50,405 bases of DNA from a virus, in UHGV virus genome UHGV-0192279; one strand, written 5' to 3'. Position 1 is the first letter of the stretch; every line of letters starts with the position of its first letter. A program made the translations under genes and the position numbers. Under the pieces are notes generated by a model, which made no database searches, had not been told where the DNA came from, and saw only the letters and a program-made list of their open reading frames with translations. Positions 20,612-36,239 of the stretch are shown here, in pieces.

Positions 20612-20626
20612 TTTGCTTATCCTCAA

Positions 20627-21428: not shown

Positions 21429-21437
21429 AATTCCCCC

Positions 21438-21644
21438 TTACACAATCCGCATTGTGTTTCGCAATTCCCCACGCAGCGCCCGCAATGCATCGTGCATTGG
21501 CACAAAAACCCGGTTAAATTTTACGTGTTTATATTTCCGCATCAGTGGCGGTGTATACACCTTTGCGTCGTATACTTCCCACGGATAATAAACGCGCGTA
21601 TCGTCGACAAACGTTTCAACTGAATAAAAGATTACCCGTCTCAT
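21438..21644 (-). CDS. hypothetical protein (68 aa)
   Basis: ORF with overlapping start/stop in operon. Confidence 0.35.
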   Translation of the reverse strand: MRRVIFYSVETFVDDTRVYYPWEVYDAKVYTPPLMRKYKHVKFNRVFVPMHDALRALRGELRNTMRIV

Positions 21645-22234: not shown

Positions 22235-22277
22235 CAGAAAGAGATCAACTTTCCGGTAAGCCGTTTGCTCAAGTTAA

Positions 22278-23699
22278 TTAAAAGGATGCGTTATTCTGGT
22301 TATTTCGTGTGGAGAATCGGCTTGCTGCCGGACGTTGTTGCATTGACTGGATGCAGGCGGACGCCGCGCGAGCCTGGTTGCATGGAATGATGTTGCCGTT
22401 ATCGTCAAACCGCTGGTAAACAGTCCCCGTTTTCCCGTAACGGTTTTTTGAAACGATGATCTCCATGTATTCGCGGGCAACTGATTGTTCGTTGTAGTAG
22501 CCGTCGCGGTAGACCATGATGATCCGGTCTGCGTCTTGTTCAAGATTACCGGAATCACGCAGATCAGAATTGTTCGGGCGCTTGTTCGGTCGTTCTTCAA
22601 CGCGGCGGGATAATTGCGCCAGCGCCGCCACTGGCACGCGCAACTCTTTCGCCATCATTTTCAATGACCACGACAATTGCCCTACGGCGAGATCATGACG
22701 TTCGGCCTTAGCCAGTTTCATTAACCCGATGTAGTCAATCATCACCATTCCAAGATTAGGATGGTCCTGTTTCATCCGTTCGACGGTGGCGCGTATTTCC
22801 TCAACCGTTAACTGCGATGCGTCAACAATCCACACATCGAGATCGGCAAGGGCGCTCATCCCCCGGGCAACGTGCGCCCATCCTTCGTCATCCAGTTTTA
22901 CCGGATTACGTAGGCAATCCGTTGATAAATTCCCAGCGCCAGCGATAGCTCGTTCAGTCATCTGATCGAGCGACATTTCAAGCGTGAACAGCAAAACGCC
23001 GACCCGCTGACCTTCTCCGCCAGGGTATTGGCGTCCAGCCGCCGCGCGGGCAATTGCCAACGCCAACGCCGATTTACCAGACCCCGGGCGTCCGGCGATA
23101 AGCACCAGATCAGTAGCGTTAATGCCGCCTAACATTTCGTCGAGTGGGTCAATCCCTGTTTTGATGTTGTCAGAGTTCACGCCACACTCCATGCGTTTAC
23201 TTAGCACTTCCGTGTATTCCTGGACAGCATCGCGCAACAGCACCGGGATAATCTGATCTTTTGTTACCTTTAATTTTGAATACCGGGAATCAAAATCTTT
23301 CATCGTCTCTTTGACAACTTCAAGCGTCCCCGTTTCCAGCTTGTAGCGAACGTCTTCCATTAGCTCCAGCATTTGCCGCCGCTGGTGTTCTTCCTGTAGT
23401 AGCTGCGCGTACCCTTTCAGGTTGGCAGCAGAAGGACACGATCGCGCCGTTTGCATTAGCGGTATGAAATTTTCGTTACCGATTTCATCACCAACCAATA
23501 ACGCGTCGATAAGATTTCTGTTTCTGGCTTGCGCCCTGATGATTTCGAACGCGCGCCTGTACAGAGGAATAGTGAATACATCAGGATCGAGTGTAGCAAG
23601 AACATCTTGCGCGTTAGGAGTAAGCCCGCCTAACAGGAGGCCACCTATAACAGCCGCTTCGCGCTCCTGCCGCAATGAGTTTACTTGGTCAGTTATCAT
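22278..23699 (-). CDS. dnaB: replicative DNA helicase, DnaB family (473 aa)
   Basis: N-terminal DnaB domain plus Walker A GRPGSGKSALALAIA and conserved RecA-fold motifs. Confidence 0.9.
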   Translation of the reverse strand: MITDQVNSLRQEREAAVIGGLLLGGLTPNAQDVLATLDPDVFTIPLYRRAFEIIRAQARNRNLIDALLVGDEIGNENFIPLMQTARSCPSAANLKGYAQLLQEEHQRRQMLELMEDVRYKLETGTLEVVKETMKDFDSRYSKLKVTKDQIIPVLLRDAVQEYTEVLSKRMECGVNSDNIKTGIDPLDEMLGGINATDLVLIAGRPGSGKSALALAIARAAAGRQYPGGEGQRVGVLLFTLEMSLDQMTERAIAGAGNLSTDCLRNPVKLDDEGWAHVARGMSALADLDVWIVDASQLTVEEIRATVERMKQDHPNLGMVMIDYIGLMKLAKAERHDLAVGQLSWSLKMMAKELRVPVAALAQLSRRVEERPNKRPNNSDLRDSGNLEQDADRIIMVYRDGYYNEQSVAREYMEIIVSKNRYGKTGTVYQRFDDNGNIIPCNQARAASACIQSMQQRPAASRFSTRNNQNNASF

Positions 23700-23709
23700 T
23701 ATGGCATTA

Positions 23710-23727
23710 CCTCATGTTTACAAAATG
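23710..23727 (-). repeat. 18-bp repeat CATTTTGTAAACATGAGG (minus strand), copy 1, upstream of helicase start
   Basis: 17 of 18 nt identical to 24846-24863; contains start-stop mini-ORF ATGAGGTAA and the TACA-N3-TGGA motif. Confidence 0.6.
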
Positions 23728-24851
23728 GAATATTCAGGGTAATAAACAAAGCGCCCAATTTCTCCATGAGCCGGGCTGTAAATAATCACCGCCGCCAGCC
23801 GCCGTGAACGCCAGCCGCCATTCGTCGAGTAAGCATCTTTGCCAGCTAACGTTCCGTGATACTCGACAACGCCTAACGATGATTCAATCAGCCGCTGGTG
23901 ATGCCAGTGTCCGCAATGAGCGTAAACTGACGACGATTTACCGAAATCCTCCCGCCAGTCAGAAACACAGGCAGCAAGTAAGGTTTCTGGTTTTTTGATG
24001 GTGTGTCCGTGGTGGTAAGCAAGGAATGTTTTTCCGTATTGTGTGTGGTGGACGATAGCAGGGGACACATCAACCGTTACGCGCGGTTCATCTTCGTAAA
24101 AAGCCGCCAGCGCCGCACGTAGCCAAATCATCCCCGACTGATCGTGATTGCCGGATAACACCTGGATCTCGACGTCCTTATGGTTTAACAACATTTTCCC
24201 CACCGCACGCCGGACCGACCGGATCGCCACATAAACAAGTTTTGCGTAGCGTGAATCGCAATCTAAGACGTGATTACTTGATGGCGTCACTGGTAATAGC
24301 CCGTCCGTGTGAAGCACATCACCGCCGAGAAGCAATACAGCTTTTTCAGACGTTGGTGCAGCGCCTACAGCGTAGTCAAAGAAGTCATTTAACACGCGTT
24401 CAGCGATCCCGGTGTCGTAGCTTTCTCCGCATTCAGCTTTATGCGCAAGCGCCCCGATATGCAGATCGAATACCGGATAAAGGGCCAGGCTTTTCTGAAA
24501 ATCAATTTCCGGCACTGGCACGGCTTCCTCGCGCGGCATTTCTTCCGTAAATGCGTCACAAGCTGCCTGCATTAGCCTTTCCATTTCCTCACGGTCACGG
24601 GCCGTTTTAATCCAGCGCATGATTACATTGCCATCTTTATCAACGAGCAATGATTCACCATTGACACCAAAACCCGGCGCGCGGCGCGTGGATATTAAAC
24701 CGCGTTTCGCCAGCCGTGCGCCCAGGCGCTCGACGTTGCGTTTTGCCATGCCGTACTTCTCAGCGATCTGTTTATACGTCAGGCCGCTGTTATGTTCAGC
24801 GATTAATTCCTCATCGCTGATCTTTCTTTGTGACATAACGTTATTCCTCAT
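23718..24851 (-). CDS. HTH domain fused to metallophosphoesterase (377 aa)
   Basis: N-terminal HTH (LTYKQIAEKYGMAKRNVERL); C-terminal calcineurin-like motifs DLHIG, GGDVLHTDG, GNHD, GHWHH. Confidence 0.7.
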   Translation of the reverse strand: MRNNVMSQRKISDEELIAEHNSGLTYKQIAEKYGMAKRNVERLGARLAKRGLISTRRAPGFGVNGESLLVDKDGNVIMRWIKTARDREEMERLMQAACDAFTEEMPREEAVPVPEIDFQKSLALYPVFDLHIGALAHKAECGESYDTGIAERVLNDFFDYAVGAAPTSEKAVLLLGGDVLHTDGLLPVTPSSNHVLDCDSRYAKLVYVAIRSVRRAVGKMLLNHKDVEIQVLSGNHDQSGMIWLRAALAAFYEDEPRVTVDVSPAIVHHTQYGKTFLAYHHGHTIKKPETLLAACVSDWREDFGKSSSVYAHCGHWHHQRLIESSLGVVEYHGTLAGKDAYSTNGGWRSRRLAAVIIYSPAHGEIGRFVYYPEYSIL

Positions 24852-24863
24852 GTTTACAGAATG
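24846..24863 (-). repeat. 18-bp repeat CATTCTGTAAACATGAGG (minus strand), copy 2; ATG here is the start codon of the phosphoesterase gene
   Basis: Near-identical to 23710-23727; contains perfect palindrome TACAgaaTGTA. Confidence 0.6.
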
Positions 24864-24965
24864 TATATTTATTTCCCGTAAAACGCGCTACAACGCAAAA
24901 TCCCACCGCGTAACCCACTTATAAGAGTGCAGTGTCTTTCTTGCGTCAGAGGCGCTATCAGGTGG

Positions 24966-25154
24966 CTATTTTTTGATTTTTAAGATGACATAAACGTTAG
25001 CTTGTTGGCGTCCATGCAATTTACTCCTGCAAATGGCTATTACTCCGGCCTGTTCCAGAGATCGGATCGCTAGCTTAACACTTTGCCGACTCACTCCCAA
25101 CCTGTCAGCAAGCATGATAAGTGATATTTGATAACCTCCCGTCCGGCAATGCAC
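24966..25154 (-). CDS. small winged-helix/HTH protein (62 aa)
   Basis: Segment DRLGVSRQSVKLAIRSLEQAGVI is HTH-like; GTG start, weak SD. Confidence 0.3.
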   Translation of the reverse strand: MHCRTGGYQISLIMLADRLGVSRQSVKLAIRSLEQAGVIAICRSKLHGRQQANVYVILKIKK

Positions 25155-25207
25155 AGCCAGCAGATCGTAAACTTTACGCTCAGTTTTGGTTAATTTCGTG
25201 AAAAGCC

Positions 25208-25293
25208 CTTAAACGCTCTATAACGAAGAAAACGCATTAAGCCAAGCAAGTATAGCACTTGATATGTTTTATCGCGTTAGGGGAGCGTTTAAG
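25208..25293. repeat. 11-bp perfect inverted repeat CTTAAACGCTC ... GAGCGTTTAAG enclosing 64 bp
   Basis: Arms at 25208-25218 and 25283-25293 in intergenic gap of leftward operon. Confidence 0.5.
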
Positions 25294-25326
25294 TGGGTTA
25301 TTTTGGGTTTTTGTGAAGCTTGGTAG

Positions 25327-26379
25327 TCAAAGAGCGCCAGCGCGGGTGTCGCGTAGCGTTTTTGGTTTTAGTAAGAAATCTAGTGTCGCAGTGAAGCCAT
25401 TGCCGAAGTAAAAATCTGAGGCCGTATTTTTGAACGCTTCGAAGTAGCTGATAAAGCCTTTGACGCTTTTATCTTTCAGGTAGTCAGAGAACGCATAAAT
25501 TTTACGTTCCAGATCCCGATCAAGTTCAGCAGGTGGTAACAGGCCATCAAACGTGCTGTTAAATGCTTCCACTACGTCGGCGGCGTTTACAGTAGCTGAT
25601 AGCTTGCGCCATTGTTCAGCATCAGCCAAATACCCATCAAACTTAGTTACCCGGCAAATGTTGATAGGCTTAGGTGTTCCACCACGGCTACGCCATTGCG
25701 TTAAAGCCCACTCAATCACTAATGTGATCTCATCCTCCGTATACGCTTTACGTGTTTTTGTTTCTGTCAGTAGTTCTACGAATGGCTTAGCATCACGACA
25801 TTTGCATCCTGCCTTGTCGTTGTAGAAGGCCAGGCAACGCAATGCCGCTTCGTTTACGCCATCCTGATTGACCATTTTTTGTTCATTTTCGACAATACAC
25901 GAAGTGTATATATCTTTTTCTCTTTCTTTTTCTACTTCTAATTCTAATTCATGACCCTTTCCTGACCTGGTCATGACCCGGTCATGACCTTTTTGTGTTG
26001 GATTGATTAACTTTTCTAATGTTAATTGCTCCTTCGCTGTGTTTATGGCGGCCCTGTAAGCGCTTTTAGAAGTCATTGATTGGTCCAGCCTTTTCAATAA
26101 CTTTAAACAAGTTATGTGGCCTTGAGAACATTCAAACAAACCAATTTCGATGAAGTATTTCATCATTTCTTCTATACGTTTTTCAGTAGATCCGACGTTT
26201 CGCGCAATTATTCTTGCGTCATGTCGTAGGTCAAAAGTTAGATTGTGCTGATCTACGTCATAAGTTATTAGTTCTAGGCAATACCAATAAAGCCCGTACC
26301 CTTCCAGGCCATAATCTAATAAAACGTTTTGAAGTTTTTCATCGCGGTTTGCATCGCTATCATGCTTAAACCATTTCAT
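25327..26379 (-). CDS. replication initiator / replisome organiser (350 aa)
   Basis: N-terminus MKWFKHDSDANRDEKL...EGYGLYWY resembles phage replisome-organiser N-domain; gene contains iteron array and AT-rich tract. Confidence 0.65.
   Translation of the reverse strand: MKWFKHDSDANRDEKLQNVLLDYGLEGYGLYWYCLELITYDVDQHNLTFDLRHDARIIARNVGSTEKRIEEMMKYFIEIGLFECSQGHITCLKLLKRLDQSMTSKSAYRAAINTAKEQLTLEKLINPTQKGHDRVMTRSGKGHELELEVEKEREKDIYTSCIVENEQKMVNQDGVNEAALRCLAFYNDKAGCKCRDAKPFVELLTETKTRKAYTEDEITLVIEWALTQWRSRGGTPKPINICRVTKFDGYLADAEQWRKLSATVNAADVVEAFNSTFDGLLPPAELDRDLERKIYAFSDYLKDKSVKGFISYFEAFKNTASDFYFGNGFTATLDFLLKPKTLRDTRAGAL
25949..25989. repeat. putative replication origin iterons (4 x TGACC at exact 11-bp phasing, two full GGTCATGACC palindromes)
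   Basis: TGACC at 25952, 25963, 25974, 25985; immediately 3' of a 45-bp AT-rich pyrimidine tract (25905-25948); located inside initiator gene as in lambda O/ori. Confidence 0.55.
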
Positions 26380-26382
26380 AGA

Positions 26383-26637
26383 TCATTCCTCCGGCAATGC
26401 AATGTCATAAATGTCGCCGTATTCGTCAGCGCGTTTAATGAATCCTTTGCGGATCAATGAATTTAATGCGTCAACAGTAGTATGCAGTGGCAGTTCGCAC
26501 ACTTTTGCGATCTCTTCGCGTGAAGCATGTGCGCGGCCTTTGTTGTCTGCCTTTTCTGCAAACGCAATTAAGACAAGTTTTTGGATCGGGCTGTTAAGTT
26601 TTACGTTCCATGCTTCATTCATCATGTGCATACTCAT
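26383..26637 (-). CDS. small HTH DNA-binding protein in cro position (84 aa)
   Basis: First gene of leftward operon divergent from repressor; AGGAG SD; winged-helix-like segment; could be Cro analogue or initiator-associated DNA-binding protein. Confidence 0.5.
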   Translation of the reverse strand: MSMHMMNEAWNVKLNSPIQKLVLIAFAEKADNKGRAHASREEIAKVCELPLHTTVDALNSLIRKGFIKRADEYGDIYDIALPEE

Positions 26638-26746
26638 CTTGTTTTTCTCCTATGGTTAGAGTGAACGCGCGGGCGGGCATCCCATTAGCATTAGATAGCA
26701 GTGACTGACCGCTCAACAGATCCCGCCGTTGCGTGATATTTGTTTT

Positions 26747-26780
26747 TCGCTTCGCAGCGACACCGGATTTTTAAAGAGCA
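26747..26780 (-). promoter_or_regulatory. nut-like site (boxA-like TGCTCTTTAAAAA + hairpin TCGCT-gcga-AGCGA) in leader of leftward operon
   Basis: Minus-strand boxA matches lambda nutL/rrn boxA consensus; 8 nt later a 5-bp stem with GNRA-type loop. Confidence 0.45.
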
Positions 26781-26979
26781 TGAGGTATGCGCCTTTTTGT
26801 GCTATTCCGTTATCTTTTTTTTTGCGTCTTTGCAACTATGGCCTTACCTTGTCTGCAAGTTTACAGAATGGAGTTTTTAAATCAAGGCTTTGAAAAATAC
26901 ATTTTGTGACTTGTATCAAACTTTTGAGGTTATAGGGTAGCGACATGAAAACAAATGGTATGACTTAGCAAAGCAGCTC

Positions 26980-27591
26980 ATGCGAGCGCAAGGCATGAGC
27001 CAGGATTCACTCGCGGATCTCATGGGGATAACTAAAGGCGGCCTGTCACACTGGCTTAACGGTCGCCGCGAGCCAAATCTTGAAGATATTGCGCGGATTA
27101 TGCGGGCACTTGGTCGTCGGCAGTTCACTGTTACCCATGATGGAATGGTCATTGATGATTCTGTTTCTAACACGTTACCGGGAGCGCCGCAGCGTGATTT
27201 AGGCAGTTACCCGGTTGTTGACTGGAAGGACACAGTAAACAATATGGAAGATACAAGGCGATCAACATTACCACACGTTACGACTAGCGTTATTTGTTCA
27301 GATGATAGTTACTGGCTGGTTGCTAAAGGTGAATCAATGAACGCGCCGCAGGGGTTGAGCATCCCTGCCGGGACGATGATACTTGTTGACCCACACGCGC
27401 CAGCTATCGATGGAAAGCTGGTTATAGCACAGCTTGAGGAAGGGCAAATACCGACGTTTAAACAGTTGATTATTGATGGAGGTCAAAGGCTTTTACGTTC
27501 GCTTAACCCGCTGTATCCACCAATCCCCATGAATCCTGAATCGAAAATCATAGGCGTGGTGGTGGACGCGAAGATCGTAAACCTGCCATAA
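26980..27591 (+). CDS. CI-like repressor (HTH_XRE + S24 LexA-like peptidase), 203 aa
   Basis: N-terminal HTH (SQDSLADLMGITKGGLSHWLNGRREP) and C-terminal S24 domain with Ser (GESM) and Lys (TFKQL) dyad. Confidence 0.85.
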   Translation: MRAQGMSQDSLADLMGITKGGLSHWLNGRREPNLEDIARIMRALGRRQFTVTHDGMVIDDSVSNTLPGAPQRDLGSYPVVDWKDTVNNMEDTRRSTLPHVTTSVICSDDSYWLVAKGESMNAPQGLSIPAGTMILVDPHAPAIDGKLVIAQLEEGQIPTFKQLIIDGGQRLLRSLNPLYPPIPMNPESKIIGVVVDAKIVNLP

Positions 27592-27597
27592 AAAATT

Positions 27598-27622
27598 AGC
27601 CGCCGAATGGCGGCTTTTCTTT
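27598..27622 (+). terminator. rho-independent terminator after repressor gene
   Basis: AGCCGCC-gaat-GGCGGCT followed by TTTTCTTT. Confidence 0.65.
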
Positions 27623-27714
27623 GCCCTGAAAACACCAAAACGTAAACATAAAACGTGTTTTATTATTTAAATATCAATGACATATAAAATATTTAAAAAA
27701 GTATACAAAATGGA

Positions 27715-27743
27715 TTGACTCGGTGTATCACGGGGCGTATATT
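27715..27743 (+). promoter_or_regulatory. candidate early promoter (pL analogue): TTGACT -17- TATATT
   Basis: Near-consensus -35 and -10 with 17-bp spacer; TACA-N3-TGG motif abuts -35; about 40 nt upstream of boxA. Confidence 0.5.
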
Positions 27744-27785
27744 TCGAGGCAAAGGAGGTAGCAAGGCAGGGGAAAGAAGGTTACT

Positions 27786-27823
27786 TGCTCTTTAACAATC
27801 TGGTCAGCCGCTGGAAGTGCGGC
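27786..27823 (+). promoter_or_regulatory. nutL-like site: boxA TGCTCTTTAACAAT + boxB-like hairpin GCCGC-tggaagt-GCGGC
   Basis: boxA identical to E. coli rrn boxA core; hairpin 7 nt downstream; located in leader of N-like gene. Confidence 0.6.
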
Positions 27824-27879
27824 AATTAATGAAGATGATTTTTATTAAGTATCATCATGGGATATAAGGAGATCAGATT

Positions 27880-28170
27880 ATGACCGTAACAATTATGTAT
27901 GGCAAATGTGATAGCAAAATAAATGCCAGGGAACGCAGAAGAATAAAAAGAGAAAACGAAAGAAAATCATCACCTGCAATCAATAAAACTGACAATGTTG
28001 ATAAAGCTATTCGTTTTGCAAACGTAGAAAGATGCAAACCGAATGGCATTAAAGAGCATCGCAAAGGTGCGGCAAAATGGTATGCGGAAAACGAAAGCGG
28101 CAATTACTACCACGCAACACAACCGCGTAGTCTAGGGGAAAAACCCCTGGATAAAGTACGCTACAGATAA
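27880..28170 (+). CDS. N-like transcription antiterminator (96 aa)
   Basis: N-terminus MTVTIMYGK...NARERRRIKRENERK resembles P22 gp24/lambda N arginine-rich motif; AAGGAG SD; preceded by nut site. Confidence 0.65.
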   Translation: MTVTIMYGKCDSKINARERRRIKRENERKSSPAINKTDNVDKAIRFANVERCKPNGIKEHRKGAAKWYAENESGNYYHATQPRSLGEKPLDKVRYR

Positions 28171-28200
28171 TACAAAATGTAAACTTTCAAAGGTGACATT

Positions 28201-28323
28201 ATGGTTGTTCAGGCGCTTCAATTCAAACTGGCTGTAGCGGAAATGCTTCACGATGCCGAAATGTGGAGCACCGCGAATAAAGCTTTATATGTAGTGTTAA
28301 CAGCGAGGGAGATTAAAGGGTGA
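28201..28323 (+). CDS. 40-aa ORF (MVVQALQFKLAVAEMLHDAEMWSTANKALYVVLTAREIKG)
   Basis: AAGGTGA SD; stop overlaps erf GTG start; preceded by perfect TACAaaaTGTA. Confidence 0.3.
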   Translation: MVVQALQFKLAVAEMLHDAEMWSTANKALYVVLTAREIKG

Positions 28324-28961
28324 AAACAGAATTACATAAAAAGCTGTGGACTATTCAGCAGACGCTGAATGCGCCGAAAAGTCAGCGCAATAATTTTGGC
28401 GGTTATAATTATCGTTCGGCAGAAGATATTTTAGAGGCTGTTAAACCACTGCTTCAAAATATCACTCTGACGGTAAGTGATGAAATCGTCTTAATTGGCG
28501 AACGCTATTACGTGAAAGCTACGGCGACACTAAGTGACGGTGAGGACGCGATAGCGGTAACTGCTTACGCAAGGGAGGAAGATAATAAGAAGGGAATGGA
28601 TGCAAGCCAGCTAACAGGAGCAACATCAAGTTACGCGCGGAAATATGCTTTGAACGGTTTATTCTGCATAGACGATGCAAAAGACGCGGATACTGATGCT
28701 TACAGTAAGCAGACAGGCCAGCAGCCTAGACAGCAGAAAAACCAGCCAAAACAACAACAGCAGCAGCAGAAAGCGCCGCCAAATCCTGATGAAGTGTTAG
28801 CGCGTTTCTGTGATGCAGCAGCGAAAGCGCCGGACGCTAACAAGTTGCGTGAAATATTCGGTAAATGCTGGAAATTACTGCCGGAAGGATCGGAACATCG
28901 AGTTAAAGCAAAAGATGTTTATGACATCCGGATCGCAGAGCTTAATGTGGAGATGAGCTAA
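28320..28961 (+). CDS. erf: Erf-family single-strand annealing protein (213 aa)
   Basis: Strong similarity to P22 Erf (LNAPK.Q.N.FG.Y.YRS.EDILE.VKPLL, SDEIVLIG.RYYVKATAT, GATSSYARKY.LNGLF.IDDAKDADT). Confidence 0.9.
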   Translation: MKTELHKKLWTIQQTLNAPKSQRNNFGGYNYRSAEDILEAVKPLLQNITLTVSDEIVLIGERYYVKATATLSDGEDAIAVTAYAREEDNKKGMDASQLTGATSSYARKYALNGLFCIDDAKDADTDAYSKQTGQQPRQQKNQPKQQQQQQKAPPNPDEVLARFCDAAAKAPDANKLREIFGKCWKLLPEGSEHRVKAKDVYDIRIAELNVEMS

Positions 28962-29380
28962 TGAGTTTAAATTCAATCACGCTTGGCGGGAATATCGGAA
29001 ACGACATGGAAGTACGCTATACGCAAAACGGGAAGGCGATTGGTAGTTTTCCGTTAGCTGTAACGAATGGCTACGGCGATAATAAGCGGACGATGTGGAT
29101 CACTTGCCTGGTATTCGGTGAGCGAGCGGAAAAATTAGCGTCACATATCCGCAAGGGTGGAAAGATAGTTGTAAGTGGTCGCCTGGATGTTCGGCAATAT
29201 GACCGGAACGACGGCACTAAGGGGACGGCGGTAGAAGTGGCGGTTAACGAATTTGAATTCATGAACGTTAACCAACAAGGCCAGCAGCAAGGCCAGCAGC
29301 AGAAAGCGCCGCCGCAGCAGCAGAATAATAACGGGAATAATCCGCCGCCGATGGACTTCGATGACGATATCCCGTTCTGA
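28961..29380 (+). CDS. ssb: single-stranded DNA-binding protein (139 aa)
   Basis: OB-fold SSB pattern, Gln/Gly-rich linker and acidic C-terminal tail MDFDDDIPF. Confidence 0.9.
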   Translation: MSLNSITLGGNIGNDMEVRYTQNGKAIGSFPLAVTNGYGDNKRTMWITCLVFGERAEKLASHIRKGGKIVVSGRLDVRQYDRNDGTKGTAVEVAVNEFEFMNVNQQGQQQGQQQKAPPQQQNNNGNNPPPMDFDDDIPF

Positions 29381-29395
29381 TTAAATAGGTTAGCG

Positions 29396-29674
29396 ATGGG
29401 TGATTATTTAAAAGCGCCACCGCCACCACGAACAAAAGAGCAAGTATTAAAAGAAGCCCGTGATCAAATCGATCATGAGCTTTTTTTATGCGGCACGGCA
29501 GCGGATCGGATGGCAAAAAGATTTAGTGACCTGTACGCAAAGCAAATATGGTTCGACAACTGGCAGGCAAGTTTTTACCCACTACAGAAAACTGATGATA
29601 TGCATTGGCCTGAATATGTCGATCCACGTATGCGCAAATATCGCGGGCGTATGGGCCAGGTTATTAACGATTAA
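29396..29674 (+). CDS. hypothetical protein (92 aa)
   Basis: ORF in early operon. Confidence 0.4.
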   Translation: MGDYLKAPPPPRTKEQVLKEARDQIDHELFLCGTAADRMAKRFSDLYAKQIWFDNWQASFYPLQKTDDMHWPEYVDPRMRKYRGRMGQVIND

Positions 29675-29687
29675 TGAGGAGTTAATC

Positions 29688-29939
29688 ATGACAGCTACAA
29701 CATTAAGCGAAAATAACTGTAGAGGTTTTCAGAGAACTGCGGAAAGCCTTGATGATAGTGATGTATTTGTTGATTTCGGCGGCGGCAACTATGAATTCGA
29801 AACGTCTGCGGGCTGGAGTGATAAATGGCCTTTCCCTACTCGACAGGAATTAAGCGATCGTAAATCATTTGGCGAAGATGCCGAACGCCTGGCGAATAAT
29901 AAATGGCTGGATAAATTTATTGCGGAGGCTGAAAAATGA
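29688..29939 (+). CDS. hypothetical protein (83 aa)
   Basis: ATG at 29688 with GAGGAG SD (track ORF 29460 extends upstream in same frame across previous gene). Confidence 0.4.
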   Translation: MTATTLSENNCRGFQRTAESLDDSDVFVDFGGGNYEFETSAGWSDKWPFPTRQELSDRKSFGEDAERLANNKWLDKFIAEAEK

Positions 29940-30055
29940 ACATAATCAAAATAGCAGCGTTATCCGCAGGGGTTGCAATAGCGGTTGCTTATCTTGCCGC
30001 TTCGCTTTATATCACGATAGCGATCATAAAACTGATTACTAATATGTGGGGTTAA
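29936..30055 (+). CDS. 39-aa single-TM peptide (MNIIKIAALSAGVAIAVAYLAASLYITIAIIKLITNMWG)
   Basis: Below track cutoff; GGAGG SD; ATGA overlap with upstream stop; hydrophobic core. Confidence 0.4.
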   Translation: MNIIKIAALSAGVAIAVAYLAASLYITIAIIKLITNMWG

Positions 30056-30057
30056 TC

Positions 30058-30177
30058 ATGAAAGTCGGTAAGGATATTGTGACGGTCGCGTTTTGCGTTA
30101 TTTGTTTCCTGTTTACGATTGCATTTTGCGGAGCACTTGCTGCGGTATTGGCTTTTATTGGTAAGGGGTTGATGTGA
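30058..30177 (+). CDS. 39-aa single-TM peptide (MKVGKDIVTVAFCVICFLFTIAFCGALAAVLAFIGKGLM)
   Basis: Below track cutoff; GGGG SD; stop overlaps next start. Confidence 0.4.
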   Translation: MKVGKDIVTVAFCVICFLFTIAFCGALAAVLAFIGKGLM

Positions 30178-30449
30178 TGGTTACTTGGAATGTAAAAGAG
30201 GGCGATCTTGTTGTTTTGCCTGAATATCGTAGTGACCCTGGTCTGGTTGTGCTGAACAAGACATATAACGATCTTGAGCGCCCAATCCTGGTTAAATATC
30301 TGGACGGAACAATTATAGAGCCGCGTTTCTTCGACAAGATTGAACTGAAGGCCCGCAATGTTCGCGTTAAGCCGTTCCGGGCTTATGTTGAAAACCACTG
30401 GCGTAAATTGTTCGCCGGACTGGATGGGATGTTCGGCGTATGGCTATAA
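30177..30449 (+). CDS. hypothetical protein (90 aa)
   Basis: ATG at 30177 overlapping upstream stop (TGATG). Confidence 0.45.
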   Translation: MVTWNVKEGDLVVLPEYRSDPGLVVLNKTYNDLERPILVKYLDGTIIEPRFFDKIELKARNVRVKPFRAYVENHWRKLFAGLDGMFGVWL

Positions 30450-30631
30450 AATTAGTGAAGGTTAAACACCTGAAAGGCGGTGAAAGATTAATGTCATGGT
30501 GGGGACATGAATTTATTGCTACTGCCTTTCATTTCGGCCCGGGTGGTCAAGTAACAATATTTGATGAAGATTACGACGAGGTGGGGCAATGGCATCTTGA
30601 GCAATATGTCGAGGTGTTAAATGAAAATTAA
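30440..30631 (+). CDS. hypothetical protein (63 aa)
   Basis: ORF with overlapping start; weak SD. Confidence 0.3.
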   Translation: MAIKLVKVKHLKGGERLMSWWGHEFIATAFHFGPGGQVTIFDEDYDEVGQWHLEQYVEVLNEN

Positions 30632-30953
30632 ATTCCACAAAGCGTATGACGCTAACACAAACAAGCTATCACTATTTATCGAATTCGAACGCCGGATCGT
30701 GGTAGCGCCCTGGTCGCGCCGCTTCAATGACGCTGGCGGGCGGCGAAAATTCGCGGTTGATATGCTGTTACGCGGCTGCGGCCTTATGCGACCGCTATCT
30801 GACTTAAAACGAATGATGCCGGGATCGTTCGGTCAGATTGATGAAATAGAAATAAGCCCGGAAGAACTGAAACGGGAGCGTGATTTATTCCTTTCAAGCG
30901 AAGAAAACCCGTTTAATTCAGAAACTGAAATGAAATGGCATCATCCACTATAA
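30621..30953 (+). CDS. hypothetical protein (110 aa)
   Basis: GAGGTG SD; ATG 30621. Confidence 0.4.
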   Translation: MKIKFHKAYDANTNKLSLFIEFERRIVVAPWSRRFNDAGGRRKFAVDMLLRGCGLMRPLSDLKRMMPGSFGQIDEIEISPEELKRERDLFLSSEENPFNSETEMKWHHPL

Positions 30954-30964
30954 GGGTAAATATT

Positions 30965-31585
30965 ATGAACAATATCAAAACGGCTTATTCACTCGGCAGC
31001 GAAGGCATGTTAATTACTCGCTACACAGAAGACGCGAGCTTTCACGAAGTGGTAACTAAGGATTATCACGAAGTATTAAAAGATATGAACGCTGGCGCGT
31101 ATGACGGTGATTTAAACCTGGCGCTACAGGTTGTTGACATTGTGATGGATGCGTCAATCCGCGATTACGTGTCTCTAAATATGGAAGAAAAAACATCGGT
31201 AGCGCGTTATGTGTTCTGCCTCACTTTCGTAAGACGCATGGAGGAGGAATTCGGACGTGTACCAGTGCCGGAAGAACTGGACCCGCTTGCGTATGGTAGT
31301 GCGATAATGGTCCCGCTGGGCGACGGGGTGATGGGTAGTGCTTCATTGCATACAATCCGTGAACTGATGCGAGATAGCCTTGAAGCTGAAGTGCTTAAGA
31401 AAGCGGTAGAAGAAGGGCGCGACGCGGAAGAAGTGAAAAAATTCATGCCTGTTATTTATGGTGATATGGTCGGCGATAATATGCGGGCTAATGATTTTGG
31501 CGTCCAGTGTGTTCTGGCGACGCTGAATGATGCCAGAAAACGTGCACAGCCAATGCCGAAACAGGAAAAACGTGTACTACATTAA
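30965..31585 (+). CDS. hypothetical protein (206 aa)
   Basis: ATG 30965 with AAGGG SD (track start 30935 overlaps upstream gene). Confidence 0.45.
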   Translation: MNNIKTAYSLGSEGMLITRYTEDASFHEVVTKDYHEVLKDMNAGAYDGDLNLALQVVDIVMDASIRDYVSLNMEEKTSVARYVFCLTFVRRMEEEFGRVPVPEELDPLAYGSAIMVPLGDGVMGSASLHTIRELMRDSLEAEVLKKAVEEGRDAEEVKKFMPVIYGDMVGDNMRANDFGVQCVLATLNDARKRAQPMPKQEKRVLH

Positions 31586-31589
31586 CAGG

Positions 31590-31621
31590 GTGATCGCGAT
31601 CACATAAATATACATTTTGTG
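31590..31621. promoter_or_regulatory. perfect 14-bp palindrome GTGATCGCGATCAC followed by ATACATTTTGTG motif
   Basis: Intergenic gap inside early operon; palindrome arms GTGAT/ATCAC recur at 34002-34015. Confidence 0.4.
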
Positions 31622-31683
31622 CTGTGATCGCATATCCGTTTTGTAAGAAGAAATCGAAAGGTTTACGGCGCGGAGAAAACAAG

Positions 31684-31902
31684 ATGGAGCGCGAATTGAT
31701 GCTCTACTGTGTAGAAGGTGGTGTAGGTCACGATGCCTACGTCGCCGGGAAAAGCTATCCAGCCGATGAAGTGCTTTTTAATATGCACTTGAGAGAAAAC
31801 GAATACCAGATATCCGTGTGGAAGCGGTGCGTTGATGGTGTTGAAGTTGCTAGCCTTGAAAGATATTTAGGTAAATTCGACTACGGATTAATGGAGGCTT
31901 GA
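31684..31902 (+). CDS. hypothetical protein (72 aa)
   Basis: ATG 31684 (track ORF begins at upstream GTG 31624). Confidence 0.35.
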   Translation: MERELMLYCVEGGVGHDAYVAGKSYPADEVLFNMHLRENEYQISVWKRCVDGVEVASLERYLGKFDYGLMEA

Positions 31903-31904
31903 TT

Positions 31905-31973
31905 ATGGACGACGCATTGTTATTCATGTGCATTTGCTGGAGATTTGTTGCTTTCTGTTTATTTGTTAGATGA
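31905..31973 (+). CDS. 22-aa hydrophobic micro-ORF (MDDALLFMCICWRFVAFCLFVR)
   Basis: GGAGG SD 7 nt upstream; below track cutoff. Confidence 0.3.
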   Translation: MDDALLFMCICWRFVAFCLFVR

Positions 31974-32001
31974 TTTATTGAATACCATATGAGGTGATTT
32001 T

Positions 32002-32139
32002 ATGAAATGCGTTGGAGACTATAGGCTACCGGATAACGCTAAATTAGCTGGGTCGGTTATGCTGGCTGTTATTACTATAACGCGGTCGGTGATATTTACA
32101 GAGTTAACATTATTGATGGTGTACAGCATTTTCGTTTAA
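32002..32139 (+). CDS. 45-aa single-TM peptide (MKCVGDYRLPDNAKLAGSVMLAVITITRSVIFTELTLLMVYSIFV)
   Basis: GAGGTGA SD 6 nt upstream; below track cutoff. Confidence 0.35.
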   Translation: MKCVGDYRLPDNAKLAGSVMLAVITITRSVIFTELTLLMVYSIFV

Positions 32140-32181
32140 TGCCTTATAGATTGAGCGCGCTTAAACAGGCGGTATTAATGC

Positions 32182-32385
32182 ATGAAGTTTAAACATTACA
32201 GGGAATGGAAAATTCCAGAAGCAGCAACAAAGGCAGCGCCAGGTGATTTTTCTGGCGTTTATTTTTATATGGATGGCGAATGGTATTTCGGCAGCAGGCC
32301 GGATCACTATTACCATGAAGTATGCAAGCCCCACGTATGGGATATTAAAGAACGCGTGAAAGACGGAGTGATTGAGGACGTTTAA
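32182..32385 (+). CDS. hypothetical protein (67 aa)
   Basis: ORF in early operon. Confidence 0.4.
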   Translation: MKFKHYREWKIPEAATKAAPGDFSGVYFYMDGEWYFGSRPDHYYHEVCKPHVWDIKERVKDGVIEDV

Positions 32386-32387
32386 AA

Positions 32388-32624
32388 ATGTTTAAGAGCT
32401 TTTTAAACTGGTTGGGAGCGTGGCTTTTAGCTACGCTTTTTGTTTTCCTGGCGGCAGCGGCTGTTATCGTCGTTATTATGCTGGGGGCGATTTTTATTAC
32501 GTGGTCGATGCCTGAATTTAACGACATTGGGAATATTCTTTTTGTCGCCCGCGCTTTATTGGCGGTTAGCGCATTTGTCGGGTTTTGCTGGACTGCCGCG
32601 CCAGATTGGGATGATCCGTTTTAG
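32388..32624 (+). CDS. small membrane protein (78 aa, 2 TM helices)
   Basis: Two long hydrophobic segments. Confidence 0.45.
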   Translation: MFKSFLNWLGAWLLATLFVFLAAAAVIVVIMLGAIFITWSMPEFNDIGNILFVARALLAVSAFVGFCWTAAPDWDDPF

Positions 32625-32626
32625 TT

Positions 32627-32860
32627 ATGGCTTTATTCAACCTGTCAGAGCCGCAATTTAATGCCGTTAAAACTGCCGCGCGGGCGGCGCTTTCTGCCTG
32701 CAAGACAGAGGTGGAAAGAAACGGATATAGCGATAAAGCCACGCGGCTGATACTCGACAAGCATTATCGCAAGGTCGCCCCGCTAATCAGCATTGAGCGT
32801 TTTGTGTGGTTGGTGGGGTATCTGAATAACCGCTGGGGGACGGAGCAGGATTATTTCTAA
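32627..32860 (+). CDS. hypothetical protein (77 aa)
   Basis: ORF in early operon. Confidence 0.35.
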   Translation: MALFNLSEPQFNAVKTAARAALSACKTEVERNGYSDKATRLILDKHYRKVAPLISIERFVWLVGYLNNRWGTEQDYF

Positions 32861-32869
32861 GGGGGCGCA

Positions 32870-33217
32870 ATGAAAAATGATTACGGCGGCAGTCATACGC
32901 CGAAAGAAATAAAAGACCTATGGCAGACGCCGAAACCTGTTTTTAGAGGAATGGATCGGGAATTCGAATTCGTCGCGGTTGTTTCCGGTGCGCTTATTTC
33001 TGGCGGCGTTTACCGGGTTCTACCTGGTGATTTCGATTCCAAACGCTGGCCTGCAAATATAGCGTCCGCCATTGGCGATGCGTTAATTTTTCCCACGCTA
33101 TCGTTTATGGCATTTATGCCGGAAATATCAGCTATTCAATTCATCTCAAAAATGGCAGCGGTAACGGTGATCACTATCATCATGCGCCGCTATTTCACGT
33201 TTGAGGGTGGAAAATGA
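32870..33217 (+). CDS. hypothetical membrane-associated protein (115 aa)
   Basis: GGGGG SD; hydrophobic segments. Confidence 0.4.
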   Translation: MKNDYGGSHTPKEIKDLWQTPKPVFRGMDREFEFVAVVSGALISGGVYRVLPGDFDSKRWPANIASAIGDALIFPTLSFMAFMPEISAIQFISKMAAVTVITIIMRRYFTFEGGK

Positions 33218-33978
33218 GCGGGCTTAGAAATTGGGTTATCTGGTCGCTGTACGACGGAAGCGGGTACGCCGTTAAAGATTGGGCGGAAGCTGGTTATAAA
33301 TGCTATTGCTTCAACTATGACGGCGCTAATCACGGGGATTATGACGGGGTAAAAATAATTCATCCAAATATTGAATATGTTAACGTATGGATTGACAGCC
33401 ATTTCCTGGTAATGTTCTCCCCTGAATTGTCTGTTTATCCAGATCCTGACATTATCTTGGGCTTTCCTCCGTGTGATGATCTTGCCGTATCAGGCGCTCG
33501 TTGGTTCGCTGATAAACGGAAAAAAGATCCTGGCTTCCAGGTAAAGGCGGCGTATAACGCAAAAATTGTAGAAAAACTGGCGAATATGTATAACGTGCCG
33601 TGGATGGTGGAAAATCCAGTTGGCGCACTGTCAACGTTATGGCGTAAACCGGATTTTATCTTCAATCCTTGCGTTTACGGTGGCTACCTGCCTGAAGATG
33701 ACAAACATCCTGCTTTCCCGGAATACATTGCCGACCGCGATGCCTACACGAAGAAAACATGTATTTGGTGTGGTAATGGATTTAAGCAGCCGCTATTCCG
33801 GCCTGTACCAATGCCGGATGAATGGGAAGACAGTAAGCAGCACGCGAAGTTAGGCGGAAAGTCGAAGCGCACTAAGATGATCCGCTCACTAACGCCGCGC
33901 GGCTTCGCACGAGCTGTATTCCTGGCTAACGACAGGGCCATCACGCGGACTACGCTTAACCGCGTTTTACCGGACTAA
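33214..33978 (+). CDS. DNA methyltransferase-like protein (C5-MTase-like motifs), 254 aa
   Basis: Motifs resembling C5-MTase I (LYDGSG), IV (GFPPCDD, Pro-Cys) and VI (ENPVG); short, no obvious target-recognition domain. Confidence 0.4.
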   Translation: MSGLRNWVIWSLYDGSGYAVKDWAEAGYKCYCFNYDGANHGDYDGVKIIHPNIEYVNVWIDSHFLVMFSPELSVYPDPDIILGFPPCDDLAVSGARWFADKRKKDPGFQVKAAYNAKIVEKLANMYNVPWMVENPVGALSTLWRKPDFIFNPCVYGGYLPEDDKHPAFPEYIADRDAYTKKTCIWCGNGFKQPLFRPVPMPDEWEDSKQHAKLGGKSKRTKMIRSLTPRGFARAVFLANDRAITRTTLNRVLPD

Positions 33979-34075
33979 AGTTTACAAAATGGCGTCATAG
34001 CGTGATATGCATCACATAATGGCGCTTTTCGCCTTGTTCTGGCGCATCCGTTTTGTATACTTCAAGCAAACAAAA

Positions 34076-34108
34076 TACTCTTTAAAAATCCGGCATCGCT
34101 GAAATGCG
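34076..34108 (+). promoter_or_regulatory. third boxA-like element TACTCTTTAAAAAT with adjacent hairpin
   Basis: CTCTTTAAAAATCCGG is a 16/16 match to the minus-strand element at 26765-26780; upstream of nin-like genes. Confidence 0.4.
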
Positions 34109-34137
34109 TAGAAATAACCTGAAAAGGAGAGAGCATT

Positions 34138-34314
34138 ATGTCTTTTGATGATTACCAATGGCATGACGACTATGAAAGAGAAAGCGTCATGCGTGCAATG
34201 TGCAATGTATGCAGCACGAAGAAAGGAGGCTGTAACGAGTGCAACGAATGCTTAGAACATTGGCTAAGGGCCGGACACGCCGAAAGGCGGAACGAAACAG
34301 AGAATCAAAAATAA
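34138..34314 (+). CDS. small Cys-rich zinc-ribbon-like protein (58 aa)
   Basis: AAGGAG SD; CxxC...CxxC...C pattern. Confidence 0.35.
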   Translation: MSFDDYQWHDDYERESVMRAMCNVCSTKKGGCNECNECLEHWLRAGHAERRNETENQK

Positions 34315-34328
34315 TCGGGGTGGTTTTT

Positions 34329-34934
34329 ATGCAGAACCCTAAAAAAACCATAAGACGCCGTTGCAAATGCTGCGGCGTTTTTTTTGAGCCTAAATATCAC
34401 AACCAGACGTGGTGCAGCGATGAATGTCTGGAAGAACTGAAGTTTGATCAGCTATGCCGCGACCGTGAGAAGGCTATGAAGGCTATGGAACGGAAGAAAC
34501 GCCGTGATAGCCAGCGGGAAGAACGAAACCGGAAGCGGAAGCAGTTAAATCCGCGTAGCTACTGGATTAAACAGGCGCAAAACGTTTTTAACGCTTATAT
34601 ACGCGAGCGTGACGCGCGATTGCCGTGTATATCTTGCGGGACTTACTACGGTGAGCAATGCGGGTGGGATGCGGGCCATTACAGGACGGTAGCCGCCGCC
34701 GGACACCTTCGCTTTAACGAGGATAATTGCCATAAACAATGCAGGCACTGCAACCAGACATTAGACGGAAACACCGGAGGGTATCGCCCTGCGCTGATTC
34801 GAAAAATTGGCCTCGCAATGGTGGTTGCGCTGGAGAACAACAACGATACACACAAATGGACGATCGCAGAATGTAAGGAGCTAATAAACATCTATCAGGC
34901 GAAATTGGACGCCTTAAGGAGAAAGGCAGCATGA
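34329..34934 (+). CDS. ninG: NinG/Rap-family recombination endonuclease (201 aa)
   Basis: N-terminal RCKCCG zinc-binding start and conserved central Cys/His pattern typical of lambda NinG; ATG 34329 with GGGGTGG SD. Confidence 0.7.
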   Translation: MQNPKKTIRRRCKCCGVFFEPKYHNQTWCSDECLEELKFDQLCRDREKAMKAMERKKRRDSQREERNRKRKQLNPRSYWIKQAQNVFNAYIRERDARLPCISCGTYYGEQCGWDAGHYRTVAAAGHLRFNEDNCHKQCRHCNQTLDGNTGGYRPALIRKIGLAMVVALENNNDTHKWTIAECKELINIYQAKLDALRRKAA

Positions 34935-35338: not shown

Positions 35339-35517
35339 AAAACGAAGTTAAAGATCTGCAAATAGATATTCAGCGCGATGAGCATGATTTAGCTACAGTC
35401 CGACAAATCCAGGCTTTTCATATGCGCGAATTGCTTGCATTGAAAGAGCTTGAGAAAAAGTTAGTCCAGTCTATTTCTGATCGTAAACAACTTATTGCTC
35501 GTTACGGGGGGAAATAA
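35335..35517 (+). CDS. small coiled-coil protein (60 aa)
   Basis: ORF with ATGA overlap. Confidence 0.4.
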   Translation: MKNEVKDLQIDIQRDEHDLATVRQIQAFHMRELLALKELEKKLVQSISDRKQLIARYGGK

Positions 35518-36239
35518 TGAATTTAGAATCCATTCTGAAATTCCACTTTCCCAAATCACCGCGATTATCAGACGAAAGCCGGGGCACATCCCCGGATGCG
35601 CTTAATACGACTGATGCGCTAACCGCTGCGGGTATGGCGCAATCGCGCGTAGAGCTTGGCTATAGTGCTTTTTTAGGGAAGATGGAGCTATCGCAAGCCG
35701 AAAAACACAGGGCTGTAGTATTGCTTACAGAGCGTTTAAGAGCTATGGCGAAAGATTACGAATATGTGATGGAATTAAATGAAGAACAACGCAATGATCT
35801 TATTATTCTTGTTGCCGTTTTCGCGTTTCGGGATTATTGCCAAAGCGCCGCGACGGAAAAAACTTGTATGGAGTGCGGCGGATATAAATTTACGTTTGAC
35901 GACTACGGAGAAAAACATCTTTGCAAAAAATGCAAGGGGCATGGAAAGGTTCGCAATCATTGTAAACAATGCAAGGGGAGTGGCGAGATACCGGATAAAA
36001 CAGCCAGCGAAGCGGCGGAAATGCCAGTATTCAAAACGTGCCAGCACTGCGGCGGGCGAGGCTACTCGCGTTTCCCTGTAGATCTTGTCCGGCAGGCTGT
36101 TAACCAGCTTGTTTTCCCGGTAAGCCGATCAACATGGTGGAAGAAATACAGGGTTTTCTATGAGGACGCCATAGCGGAGCTATTCAAAGAAGAAGCCCGC
36201 GCGGAAAGCGAAATCAAGCGAGTGACACGGGGTGAATAA
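35517..36239 (+). CDS. putative late antiterminator Q-like protein with 4 CxxCxGxG zinc-finger repeats (240 aa)
   Basis: Position directly after rusA as in lambdoid prophages; four DnaJ-type CxxCxGxG repeats; family assignment tentative. Confidence 0.4.
   Translation: MNLESILKFHFPKSPRLSDESRGTSPDALNTTDALTAAGMAQSRVELGYSAFLGKMELSQAEKHRAVVLLTERLRAMAKDYEYVMELNEEQRNDLIILVAVFAFRDYCQSAATEKTCMECGGYKFTFDDYGEKHLCKKCKGHGKVRNHCKQCKGSGEIPDKTASEAAEMPVFKTCQHCGGRGYSRFPVDLVRQAVNQLVFPVSRSTWWKKYRVFYEDAIAELFKEEARAESEIKRVTRGE

Follow-up and report, generated by a model that had tools for sequence, protein, structure and literature searches.

Three predicted nut sites and an N-like gene in the early region of virus genome UHGV-0192279, a relative of Escherichia phage mEp021

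Results

Gene content of the early region

We analysed virus genome UHGV-0192279, a stretch of 50,405 nucleotides given as one strand (the window), in which three boxA-like elements, each followed by a small hairpin, lie between positions 26,747 and 34,108 and accompany a gene for a 96-aa protein resembling the antitermination protein N. We found that this is very probably the early regulatory region of a temperate Escherichia coli phage of the mEp021 ('mEpimmI') group, with that group's N-type processive antitermination system. It is not a new system: mEp021 and its relatives are known to have it, and the window adds one more member to the group.

Positions 26300-34400 match the Escherichia phages mEp013, mEp044, mEp010, mEp554, mEp515, mEp021 and MagusPhagus at 84-88% identity over 83-96% coverage, and overall nucleotide identity to the mEp021 group is ~85%. 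Among 5,426 complete E. coli genomes, 35 carry the immunity region as a prophage (top match 98.8%), the repressor region being 98.8% identical to E. coli prophages. Besides this similarity, the window shares with the mEpimmI group the Rep021-type repressor (immunity I), although the repressor frame is broken at codon 4.

The gene order of the window agrees with the annotation of mEp021. Leftward genes encode a MarR/HTH_36 protein and a replication initiator (Pfam, PHROG). Rightward, the CI/LexA-type repressor gene is followed by a bidirectional terminator-like hairpin, a strong predicted promoter, the 96-aa gene, erf, ssb, an abc2-like gene, accessory genes and two methyltransferase genes; after these come ninF/ninG/rusA-like genes and then a Q-like antiterminator gene (Table 1). 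Compared with lambda, the arrangement of the operons is reversed: the replication genes (HTH_36 protein, Lin1244_N/O-like initiator and DnaB-type helicase) are in the leftward operon controlled by nutL (19958-26637, minus strand), and the rightward operon holds the N-like gene together with recombination genes. There is no obvious cro-like gene beside the repressor gene.

Table 1. Coordinates of genes and predicted regulatory features in the window.
Feature	Position	Strand	Details
nutL (site 2)	26747..26780, read 26780->26747	-	boxA and hairpin; covariance model 57.8 bits
Candidate pL promoter	26858..26885	-	predicted; -35 TTGATT (26885-26880), 16-nt spacer, -10 TAAACT (26863-26858)
CI/LexA-type repressor gene (Rep021 homologue)	26946..27591	+	Pfam HTH_3 and Peptidase_S24; frameshifted at codon 4
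Bidirectional terminator-like hairpin after repressor gene	27598..27615	.	7 pairs, 6 of them G-C; T runs on both strands; TERM_1 of mEp021
pR1 promoter (predicted)	27715..27743	+	TTGACT, 17 nt, TATATT; 10/12 consensus match
nutR1 (site 1)	27786..27823	+	boxA and hairpin; -10.1 kcal/mol; covariance model 53.3 bits
N-like antiterminator gene (Gp17 homologue, 96 aa)	27880..28170	+	arginine-rich motif NARERRRIKRENERK at residues 15-29
Intrinsic-terminator-like site, nutR1-nutR2 interval	32235..32269	+	9 pairs, then TATTTTTATA
Second intrinsic-terminator-like site, nutR1-nutR2 interval	32414..32450	+	12 pairs, then TGTTTTCC
Terminator-like hairpin ('t4' of mEp021, TERM_4)	33992..34029	+	followed by UUUU; directly 5' of the nutR2 module
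Promoter-like element ('pR2')	34034..34061	+	predicted; TTGTTC, 16 nt, TATACT
nutR2 (site 3)	34076..34108	+	boxA and hairpin; covariance model 51.6 bits
Terminator-like site in NinG-like gene	34359..34387	+	3' of nutR2; 7 pairs, then TTTTTTTTGA
Q-like late antiterminator gene	35517..36239	+	Pfam Antiterm E = 5e-29; PHROG 127 E = 1.4e-77; 3' of nutR2 and nin-like genes

Three boxA-hairpin sites in early leaders

All three elements, which a sequence-only reading of the window had pointed out, can be read directly from the DNA, and each occupies an intergenic leader, in sense orientation to the operon that it faces. In lambdoid nut sites, too, the sense strand of an early leader carries a single-stranded boxA with a short boxB hairpin behind it, and we refer to the elements as nutL, nutR1 and nutR2. 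On the minus strand nutL reads TGCTCTTTAAAAA-TCCGGTG-TCGCT-GCGA-AGCGA, giving in RNA the boxA UGCUCUUUAAAAA (26780-26768), the spacer UCCGGUG and a boxB, UCGCU-GCGA-AGCGA (26760-26747), with a 5-bp stem and a GNRA tetraloop. The boxA of nutR1, TGCTCTTTAACAA (27786-27798), matches the boxA query at 13/13 positions; 8 nt, TCTGGTCA, separate it from the hairpin GCCGC (27807-11)-TGGAAGT-GCGGC (27819-23), which the earlier reading had given correctly. Its RNA consists of an rrn-type boxA, UGCUCUUUAACAA, the spacer UCUGGUCA and the boxB GCCGC-U GGAAG U-GCGGC, and the site ends 56 nt 5' of the 96-aa open reading frame. The DNA of nutR2 is TACTCTTTAAAAA-TCCGGCAT-CGC-TGAAAT-GCG, transcribed as boxA UACUCUUUAAAAA, spacer UCCGGCAU and boxB CGC-U GAAA U-GCG; it lies 6.3 kb 3' of nutR1, both being on the rightward strand. 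As had been noticed, nutL and nutR2 share a 16/16 core, CTCTTTAAAAATCCGG, and the spacer AAUCYGG after boxA is common to all three sites. The homologous positions in mEp021 (locus L001) are 1599-1637 (minus strand) for nutL, 2859-2900 for nutR1 and 10806-10844 for nutR2.

Conservation and covariation of the sites

The comparison set comprised 42 viral contigs encoding the 96-aa protein, 3 divergent loci (60-71% protein identity), 2 GenBank phages and 1 E. coli prophage. We found all three sites in every locus long enough to contain them. A covariance model was built from 22 distinct sites of mEp-type phages, with no contribution from P22; in 49 sources (782 kb) it found 142 sites, all at three syntenic positions, and no fourth nut site. 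Within the window the model finds only the three sites, which occupy these same positions and score 52-58 bits, whereas the next match has 9 bits; scores across the other sites are 40-59 bits. All genomes that bear these sites also encode the protein with the arginine-rich motif.

The 4-bp boxB stem is backed by covariation in an alignment (A1) of 14 distinct hairpins. Its fourth pair occurs as five pair types (UA, GU, AU, CG and GC), and boxB cells changed on both sides number 14 versus 3.7 in shuffles, none of the 500 shuffles reaching 14; when the 3' partner is slid, boxB pairing drops from 71% to 27-57%. The stems of nutR1 are wholly different between lineages (GCCGC/GCGGC, GCUAC/GUAGC, UGCAC/GUGCA, UCGC/GCGA and GCAC/GUGC), yet the loop U-GAAA-U is kept despite this turnover, with U-GGAAG-U in the lineage of the window's nutR1. 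More generally the boxB loop is kept as a 4-nt GNRA (GAAA, or in nutL GCGA, GUGA or GCAA) closed by U.U or U-A. At nutR2 the conserved, covarying pairing is CGC/GCG plus one more pair, and the minimum-energy fold in the window has the 3-bp CGC/GCG stem only. An alternative 4-bp GCAU/AUGC stem with a 7-nt loop at nutR2 was rejected: it is not the minimum-energy fold, and it has 3 pairs in mEp021, where GCAG replaces GCAU.

An N-like protein with an arginine-rich motif

With Gp17 of mEp021 the 96-aa protein shares 93% identity; it also matches PHROG 271 ('anti-termination protein N-like') at E = 1.9e-10. Among 13 family members R17, R20 and R24 are invariant and R19 nearly so; the window has R17, R19, R20, R21 and R24, and hence the arginines R17, R19, R20 and R24 by which a Gp17 orthologue is recognised. 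The motif NARERRRIKR aligns with NAKTRRHERR of P22 and DAQTRRRERR of lambda.

The protein family is narrow, with 35 sequence clusters of 56-98 aa, and all named sources are E. coli or uncultured phage. A tblastn search of 50,697 phage records returned only seven matching records, all of the mEp group. Hence, similarity to P22 gp24 was tested pairwise. The N terminus aligns with that of P22 gp24 as MTV-I-YGK...NA(R/K)-RR, and BLASTP gives 15/36 identities at E = 0.009; the earlier statement that the product carries an arginine-rich motif like that of P22 gp24 therefore holds, weakly. A search of PDB sequences with the N-like protein found no lambda or P22 N peptide. Its matches to MESH1/HDDC3 and a designed repeat protein (E ~0.003-0.008) were taken as chance, arising from a low-complexity basic segment. 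The resemblance to N appears clear in architecture and at the N terminus, and marginal as sequence homology.

Identification with the Gp17 system of mEp021

PMC11893012 (Front Microbiol 2025) describes mEp021 Gp17 as an N-lambda-like protein responsible for early antitermination and credits the work on Gp17 and the nut sites to Valencia-Toxqui et al. 2023 (Arch Virol 168:92). According to that paper, three sites are targets of Gp17: nutL lies between gp14 and gp15 (the repressor gene), nutR1 upstream of gp17, and nutR2 in the stretch from the cytosine methyltransferase gene to the nin genes. There, too, the three sites are said to be conserved in 48 phages and prophages and to distinguish the group from lambda with its two, and read-through in mEp021 is reported to depend on Gp17 and Nus factors. 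Homology and position support identifying the three elements of the window with nutL, nutR1 and nutR2 of this known system, and the earlier proposal, in which an N-like protein would use three nut sites, the third of them well downstream and ahead of nin-like genes, agrees with the description of these closest relatives. By analogy with the mEp021 literature, the sites would depend on Gp17 and Nus factors here as well.

Early transcripts would start at pL, running leftward through the replication genes, and at pR1, running rightward through the N-like gene and the erf, ssb and accessory genes. Each would carry near its 5' end a nut site with a single-stranded boxA and, 7-8 nt later, the small boxB hairpin. 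The boxA would bind NusB-NusE, as in E. coli, and the arginine-rich N terminus of the Gp17-like protein would bind the boxB loop; tethered to the RNA and together with Nus factors, the protein would render RNA polymerase resistant to downstream terminators. At nutR2 the modification might be reloaded on read-through transcripts, or polymerases arriving from the promoter-like element just 5' might be modified. Under either role of nutR2, expression of Q would depend on the N-like protein. The promoters in this scheme, and the terminators that would be overcome, are ones that we infer.

Several observations weigh against this interpretation or temper it. The Pfam N_peptide model stays below its cut-off for the 96-aa protein (E = 0.013; 16.4 bits versus 27.9), and full-length similarity by hhalign is weak, with probabilities of 8.6% for P22 gp24 and 1.9% for lambda N. 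Correspondence with the published sites was judged from where these are described to lie, and not from published coordinates. Terminator-like sites follow nutR1 and nutR2 (Table 1), whereas on the minus strand beyond nutL no strong intrinsic terminator was found; reasoning from lambda biology, the targets of nutL would then be Rho-dependent or weak sites. Two changes unique to the window's nutR2 may weaken that site (see below). In folding energy the three hairpins do not surpass shuffled sequence (z = -0.69, -0.43 and +0.30). Hence, the structural evidence comes from comparison with relatives and not from folding energy.

Predicted early promoters and their leaders

The predicted start of the candidate pL lies near 26851, ~70 nt 5' of nutL. 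Across 28 distinct variants its -35 hexamer (TTGAYY) and the block CCATTYTGTAAACTT are conserved, and the first half of the spacer varies. For pR1 both hexamers are conserved in relatives and the spacer is variable.

Both leaders contain further structure. Between nutL and the first leftward gene (26672-26727, minus strand), ~100 nt are highly conserved and form a long hairpin, GGCGGGAUCU...GGGAUGCCCGCC, with a compensatory double change, GGCUGG with CCAGCC, in one relative (L013). No U-tract follows this hairpin, which therefore does not look like an intrinsic terminator. An unusually good fold is predicted for the nutR1 leader (27750-27885, plus strand; -35.1 kcal/mol, z = -3.1), in which the spacer between boxA and boxB, AAUCUGGUC, pairs with GAUCAGAUU. 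The latter stands after the Shine-Dalgarno sequence and before the AUG of the N-like gene, which recalls the nutL-linked translational control of lambda N. Covariation does not support this pairing as a conserved feature: close relatives show no variation in the paired bases, and a divergent locus (L047) lacks the pairing.

A possible promoter module at nutR2

The sequence-only reading had placed the third element deep inside an operon. The site does precede the nin-like genes, but this wording may overstate its position: a terminator hairpin (t4) and a conserved promoter-like element (pR2) lie directly 5' of it. The 100 nt upstream of nutR2 were aligned for 47 loci, which yielded 37 distinct variants. 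In these, the GUGAU/AUCAC and lower stem of t4 are conserved and its loop is variable. The CTTGTT and the block ATCCRTTTTGTATACT of pR2 are (nearly) invariant with 6-7 freely varying bases between them, and boxA follows after 14 nt; the predicted start is near 34068, ~8 nt 5' of the nutR2 boxA. Since pR2 scores only 8/12 against the sigma-70 consensus, it is absent from the list of a simple consensus scan. The candidate pL and pR2 have the same geometry (a TTG hexamer, a 16-nt spacer and TAWACT) and share a 17-nt motif with <=3 mismatches.

If pR2 is a promoter, nutR2 would head its own N-dependent unit. On this alternative, nutR2 would not be an internal reloading site: a t4-promoter-nutR2 module would head the nin and Q genes, with nutR2 leading a third early transcription unit of its own, and polymerases starting there would take on the N modification ~8 nt into the transcript. 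We rate this as possible, somewhat less likely than not, and it would refine the Gp17 interpretation without replacing it. A (nearly) invariant hexamer and block with free variation between them is the conservation pattern to be expected of a promoter, the only plausible pL has the geometry and motif of pR2, and the terminator directly 5' completes a terminator-promoter-nut module like that at 27598-27823 after the repressor gene. Against this, the consensus match is low enough to escape the scan, the conserved half of the spacer (CCRTTYTG) exceeds what a promoter needs and could be a protein-binding site, two copies of the motif (27699-27715 and 33978-33994, both minus strand) face no useful direction, and the mEp021 papers place nutR2 within the right operon. 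If the alternative is true, the three nut sites would reflect three N-dependent early promoters and not reloading of N on a long operon.

The shared motif, (CCRTTYTG)TAWACTT, is repeated at 26857-26873 (minus), 27699-27715 (minus), 33978-33994 (minus), 34046-34062 (plus), 23714-23730 (minus), 24851-24864 (minus) and 28178-28185 (plus). The 17-mer has 6 matches versus 0.47 expected, TGTAWACW has 16 versus 5.6 expected (0/100 shuffles reach 16), and the core (ACAAAATGG / TGTAWAC) recurs in four early regulatory regions. Copies overlap the -10 and spacer of both the candidate pL and pR2, and another stands back-to-back with the pR1 -35 in the opposite orientation. The motif (CCRTTYTGTAWACTT; also CCRTTYTGTAWAC) could serve either as a promoter core common to these regions or as an operator at which the Rep021-type repressor, or another regulator, binds. 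Pairing between the inverted copies that flank t4 (33978-33994 with 34046-34062) is present in the minimum-energy fold but finds no support in relatives, where the changes produce wobbles or mismatches and never compensation.

A paralogue of the module upstream of nutR2 lies at 31586-31665: a GTGATCGCGATCAC hairpin, ATAA, ACATTTTGTG and then ATCCGTTTTGTAAG, with no nut site after it. In relatives it has TTGTGA, 16 nt and TAAACT, where the window has TAAGAA. Together with the terminators at 32235 and 32414, this module could form a moron-like promoter-gene-terminator cassette.

Features particular to this copy

Two substitutions in the window's nutR2 occur in none of the 47 related loci. In boxA, the G at position 2 is replaced by A (UAC for UGC), in the window alone among 48 copies; at the base of the boxB stem, G is replaced by U, which breaks the fourth pair (U.U), the sole case in the 14 distinct hairpins. 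The altered boxA G is at the position of lambda boxA5 (G35U), which abolishes N action and weakens the affinity for NusB:NusE from 90 nM to 5200 nM (PMC2800207), and BoxA nucleotides 1-8 make base-specific contacts with NusB-NusE (PMC3177189). Because of the change at the boxA5 position and the broken pair, the window's nutR2 may be weakened. That it is a decaying copy, weakened or non-functional, seems unlikely overall: its fold at -3.2 kcal/mol with an unpaired centroid fits decay, as does the unique UAC, but the change is G to A and not the G to U of boxA5, boxA is otherwise unchanged, the 3-bp stem and the loop are preserved, its covariance score lies within the range of the other sites, and a sequencing error is possible.

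The repressor gene of the window has AAA at 26953-55, where 45/45 relatives have AAAA. The window accordingly reads ATGAAAACAAATGG (MKTNGMT, stop) in place of ATGAAAACAAAATGG (MKTKWYDLAKQL...), found in all 45, and the frame resumes at the ATG at 26980, giving 203 aa versus 215 aa in relatives. Over 2.6 kb of 98.8% identity with one related contig (L003, IMGVR_UViG_3300045988_046788), there are four 1-nt indels, and the repressor indel is the only one in coding sequence. The frameshift is either a homopolymer sequencing error or the mark of a genuine repressor-defective (clear-plaque) phage. This same contig points to mosaicism: its N-like protein and nutR1 region are identical to the window's, whereas identity is 97% in the nutL region, 91% in the nutR2 region and 84-92% in segments elsewhere.

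Protein-independent boxA action and chance

The rrn-type boxA of nutR1 raises the alternative that boxA works here independently of any phage protein, as an rrn-type Nus-factor (NusB/NusE/NusG/SuhB) anti-Rho signal with incidental hairpins, which we consider very improbable. In its favour, the boxA of nutR1 is the same sequence as the rrn-type query, the hairpin energies are unremarkable, and rrn BoxA binds NusB:NusE about ten-fold tighter than lambda nut BoxA does (PMC2800207). Against it, a hairpin stands at a fixed distance in all three sites across 48 loci, with compensatory stem changes and a kept GNRA loop; a protein with an arginine-rich motif is encoded wherever the sites occur; and dependence on Gp17 is reported for mEp021 in PMC11893012. 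The order of elements also differs. The window's covarying hairpins lie 3' of boxA, as in the nut sites of lambda and P22. In the rrn leader, where boxA acts with NusB/NusE/NusA/NusG/SuhB/S4 and no phage protein is involved, the hairpin comes first and boxA second.

With <=2 mismatches, boxA has 6 matches in the window versus 1.5 expected, and a hairpin follows only in the three sites. The other matches, at 19791 (plus), 45118 (minus) and 46551 (minus), each with 2 mismatches, lack a hairpin and score <=9.3 bits, as does TGCTCTTTAA at 28049-28058 (minus) within the N-like gene. A scan of the whole window at Rfam gathering thresholds gave 0 hits, with no boxA/boxB family reported. Although CTCTTTAA alone is only mildly enriched (5 versus 1.7 expected), the idea that the three matches are chance occurrences of an AT-rich motif can be dismissed, as the composite of boxA and a G+C hairpin occurs 3 times versus 0.19 expected (0/300 first-order Markov simulations reached 3) and the position and sequence of the sites are conserved across 48 loci, which already refutes it.

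Comparison with known systems

P22 has the same order of boxA, spacer and boxB. Its nutR (CGCUCUUUACCAAUCUGAACCGCCGACAACGCGG; CGCUCUUUACCAAUCUGAA-CCGC-C GACAA C-GCGG) shares CUCUUUAnCAAUCUG with the window's nutR1, and both have a pyrimidine-pyrimidine mismatch flanking a 5-nt loop. The comparison with P22 and lambda that the sequence-only reading had suggested gave a divided result: in the 41.7-kb P22 genome the two top matches of the covariance model are the annotated nutR (13.7 bits) and nutL (13.0 bits), whereas the lambda nut sites were not detected at E <= 10. Hence, the window's sites are closer to the P22 type. P22 differs in having two nut sites, gene 24 in the leftward operon and the loop GACAA in place of the true 4-nt GNRA of most mEp-type sites, and the similarity of the 96-aa protein to gp24 beyond the N terminus is not significant by hhalign.

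With lambda the window shares a small basic protein with an N-terminal arginine-rich motif, boxA followed by boxB in the leaders of two divergent early operons, and a nin-like region with Q downstream. The lambda sequences differ (boxA CGCUCUUA; boxB GCCCU-GAAAA/GAAGA-AGGGC), and the motif alignment shows no equivalent of Trp18. Lambda has N in the left operon and the replication genes in the right, the opposite of the window. Measured against the lambdoid standard of a 5-bp boxB stem and a GNRA-like pentaloop, nutR1 has the 5-bp stem with U-GGAAG-U; nutL, nutR2 and nutR1 of other lineages have 3-5-bp stems and 4-nt GNRA loops, related to the loops of lambda and P22 and not identical to them. 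What this adds is a boxB class, supported by covariation, whose tetraloop is a true GNRA with U.U or U-A as its closing pair. Lambdoid phages have two nut sites, one per divergent operon, and the window has three, two of them rightward. The three sites, called unusual in the earlier reading, are so relative to lambda, but they are not new, having been published for mEp021.

mEp021 has the same gene order throughout: replication genes, a MarR-like HTH gene, nutL, the repressor gene, a terminator, pR1, nutR1 and gp17, then erf, ssb, accessory genes, methyltransferase genes, t4, nutR2, ninF/ninG/rusA and Q. It has three sites at the same positions, with an identical nutL boxB and the same nutR1 boxB. 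It differs in its nutR1 boxA, which is CGCUCAUUAACAA, as in the majority of relatives, and not the window's rrn-type sequence; its intergenic region between the repressor and N-like genes is ~215 nt longer than that of the window, which has no gp16. The two nutR2 substitutions and the frameshifted repressor gene also set the window apart. PMC11893012 defines neither promoters nor operators for the mEp021 group, and nut sequences are absent from its supplements; the promoter-like element before nutR2, the two nutR2 changes and the repressor frameshift appear to go beyond that paper. Of modest residual interest are the possible nutR2 promoter and the repeated motif, as candidate promoters or operators of the group, and the natural variants at boxA positions that matter in lambda, which could guide work on the mEp021 group. 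The biology itself is not new, three nut sites with an N-like protein being the published hallmark of the mEp021 group; that a reading of raw sequence recovered a system known from experiments on a close relative speaks for this method of reading.

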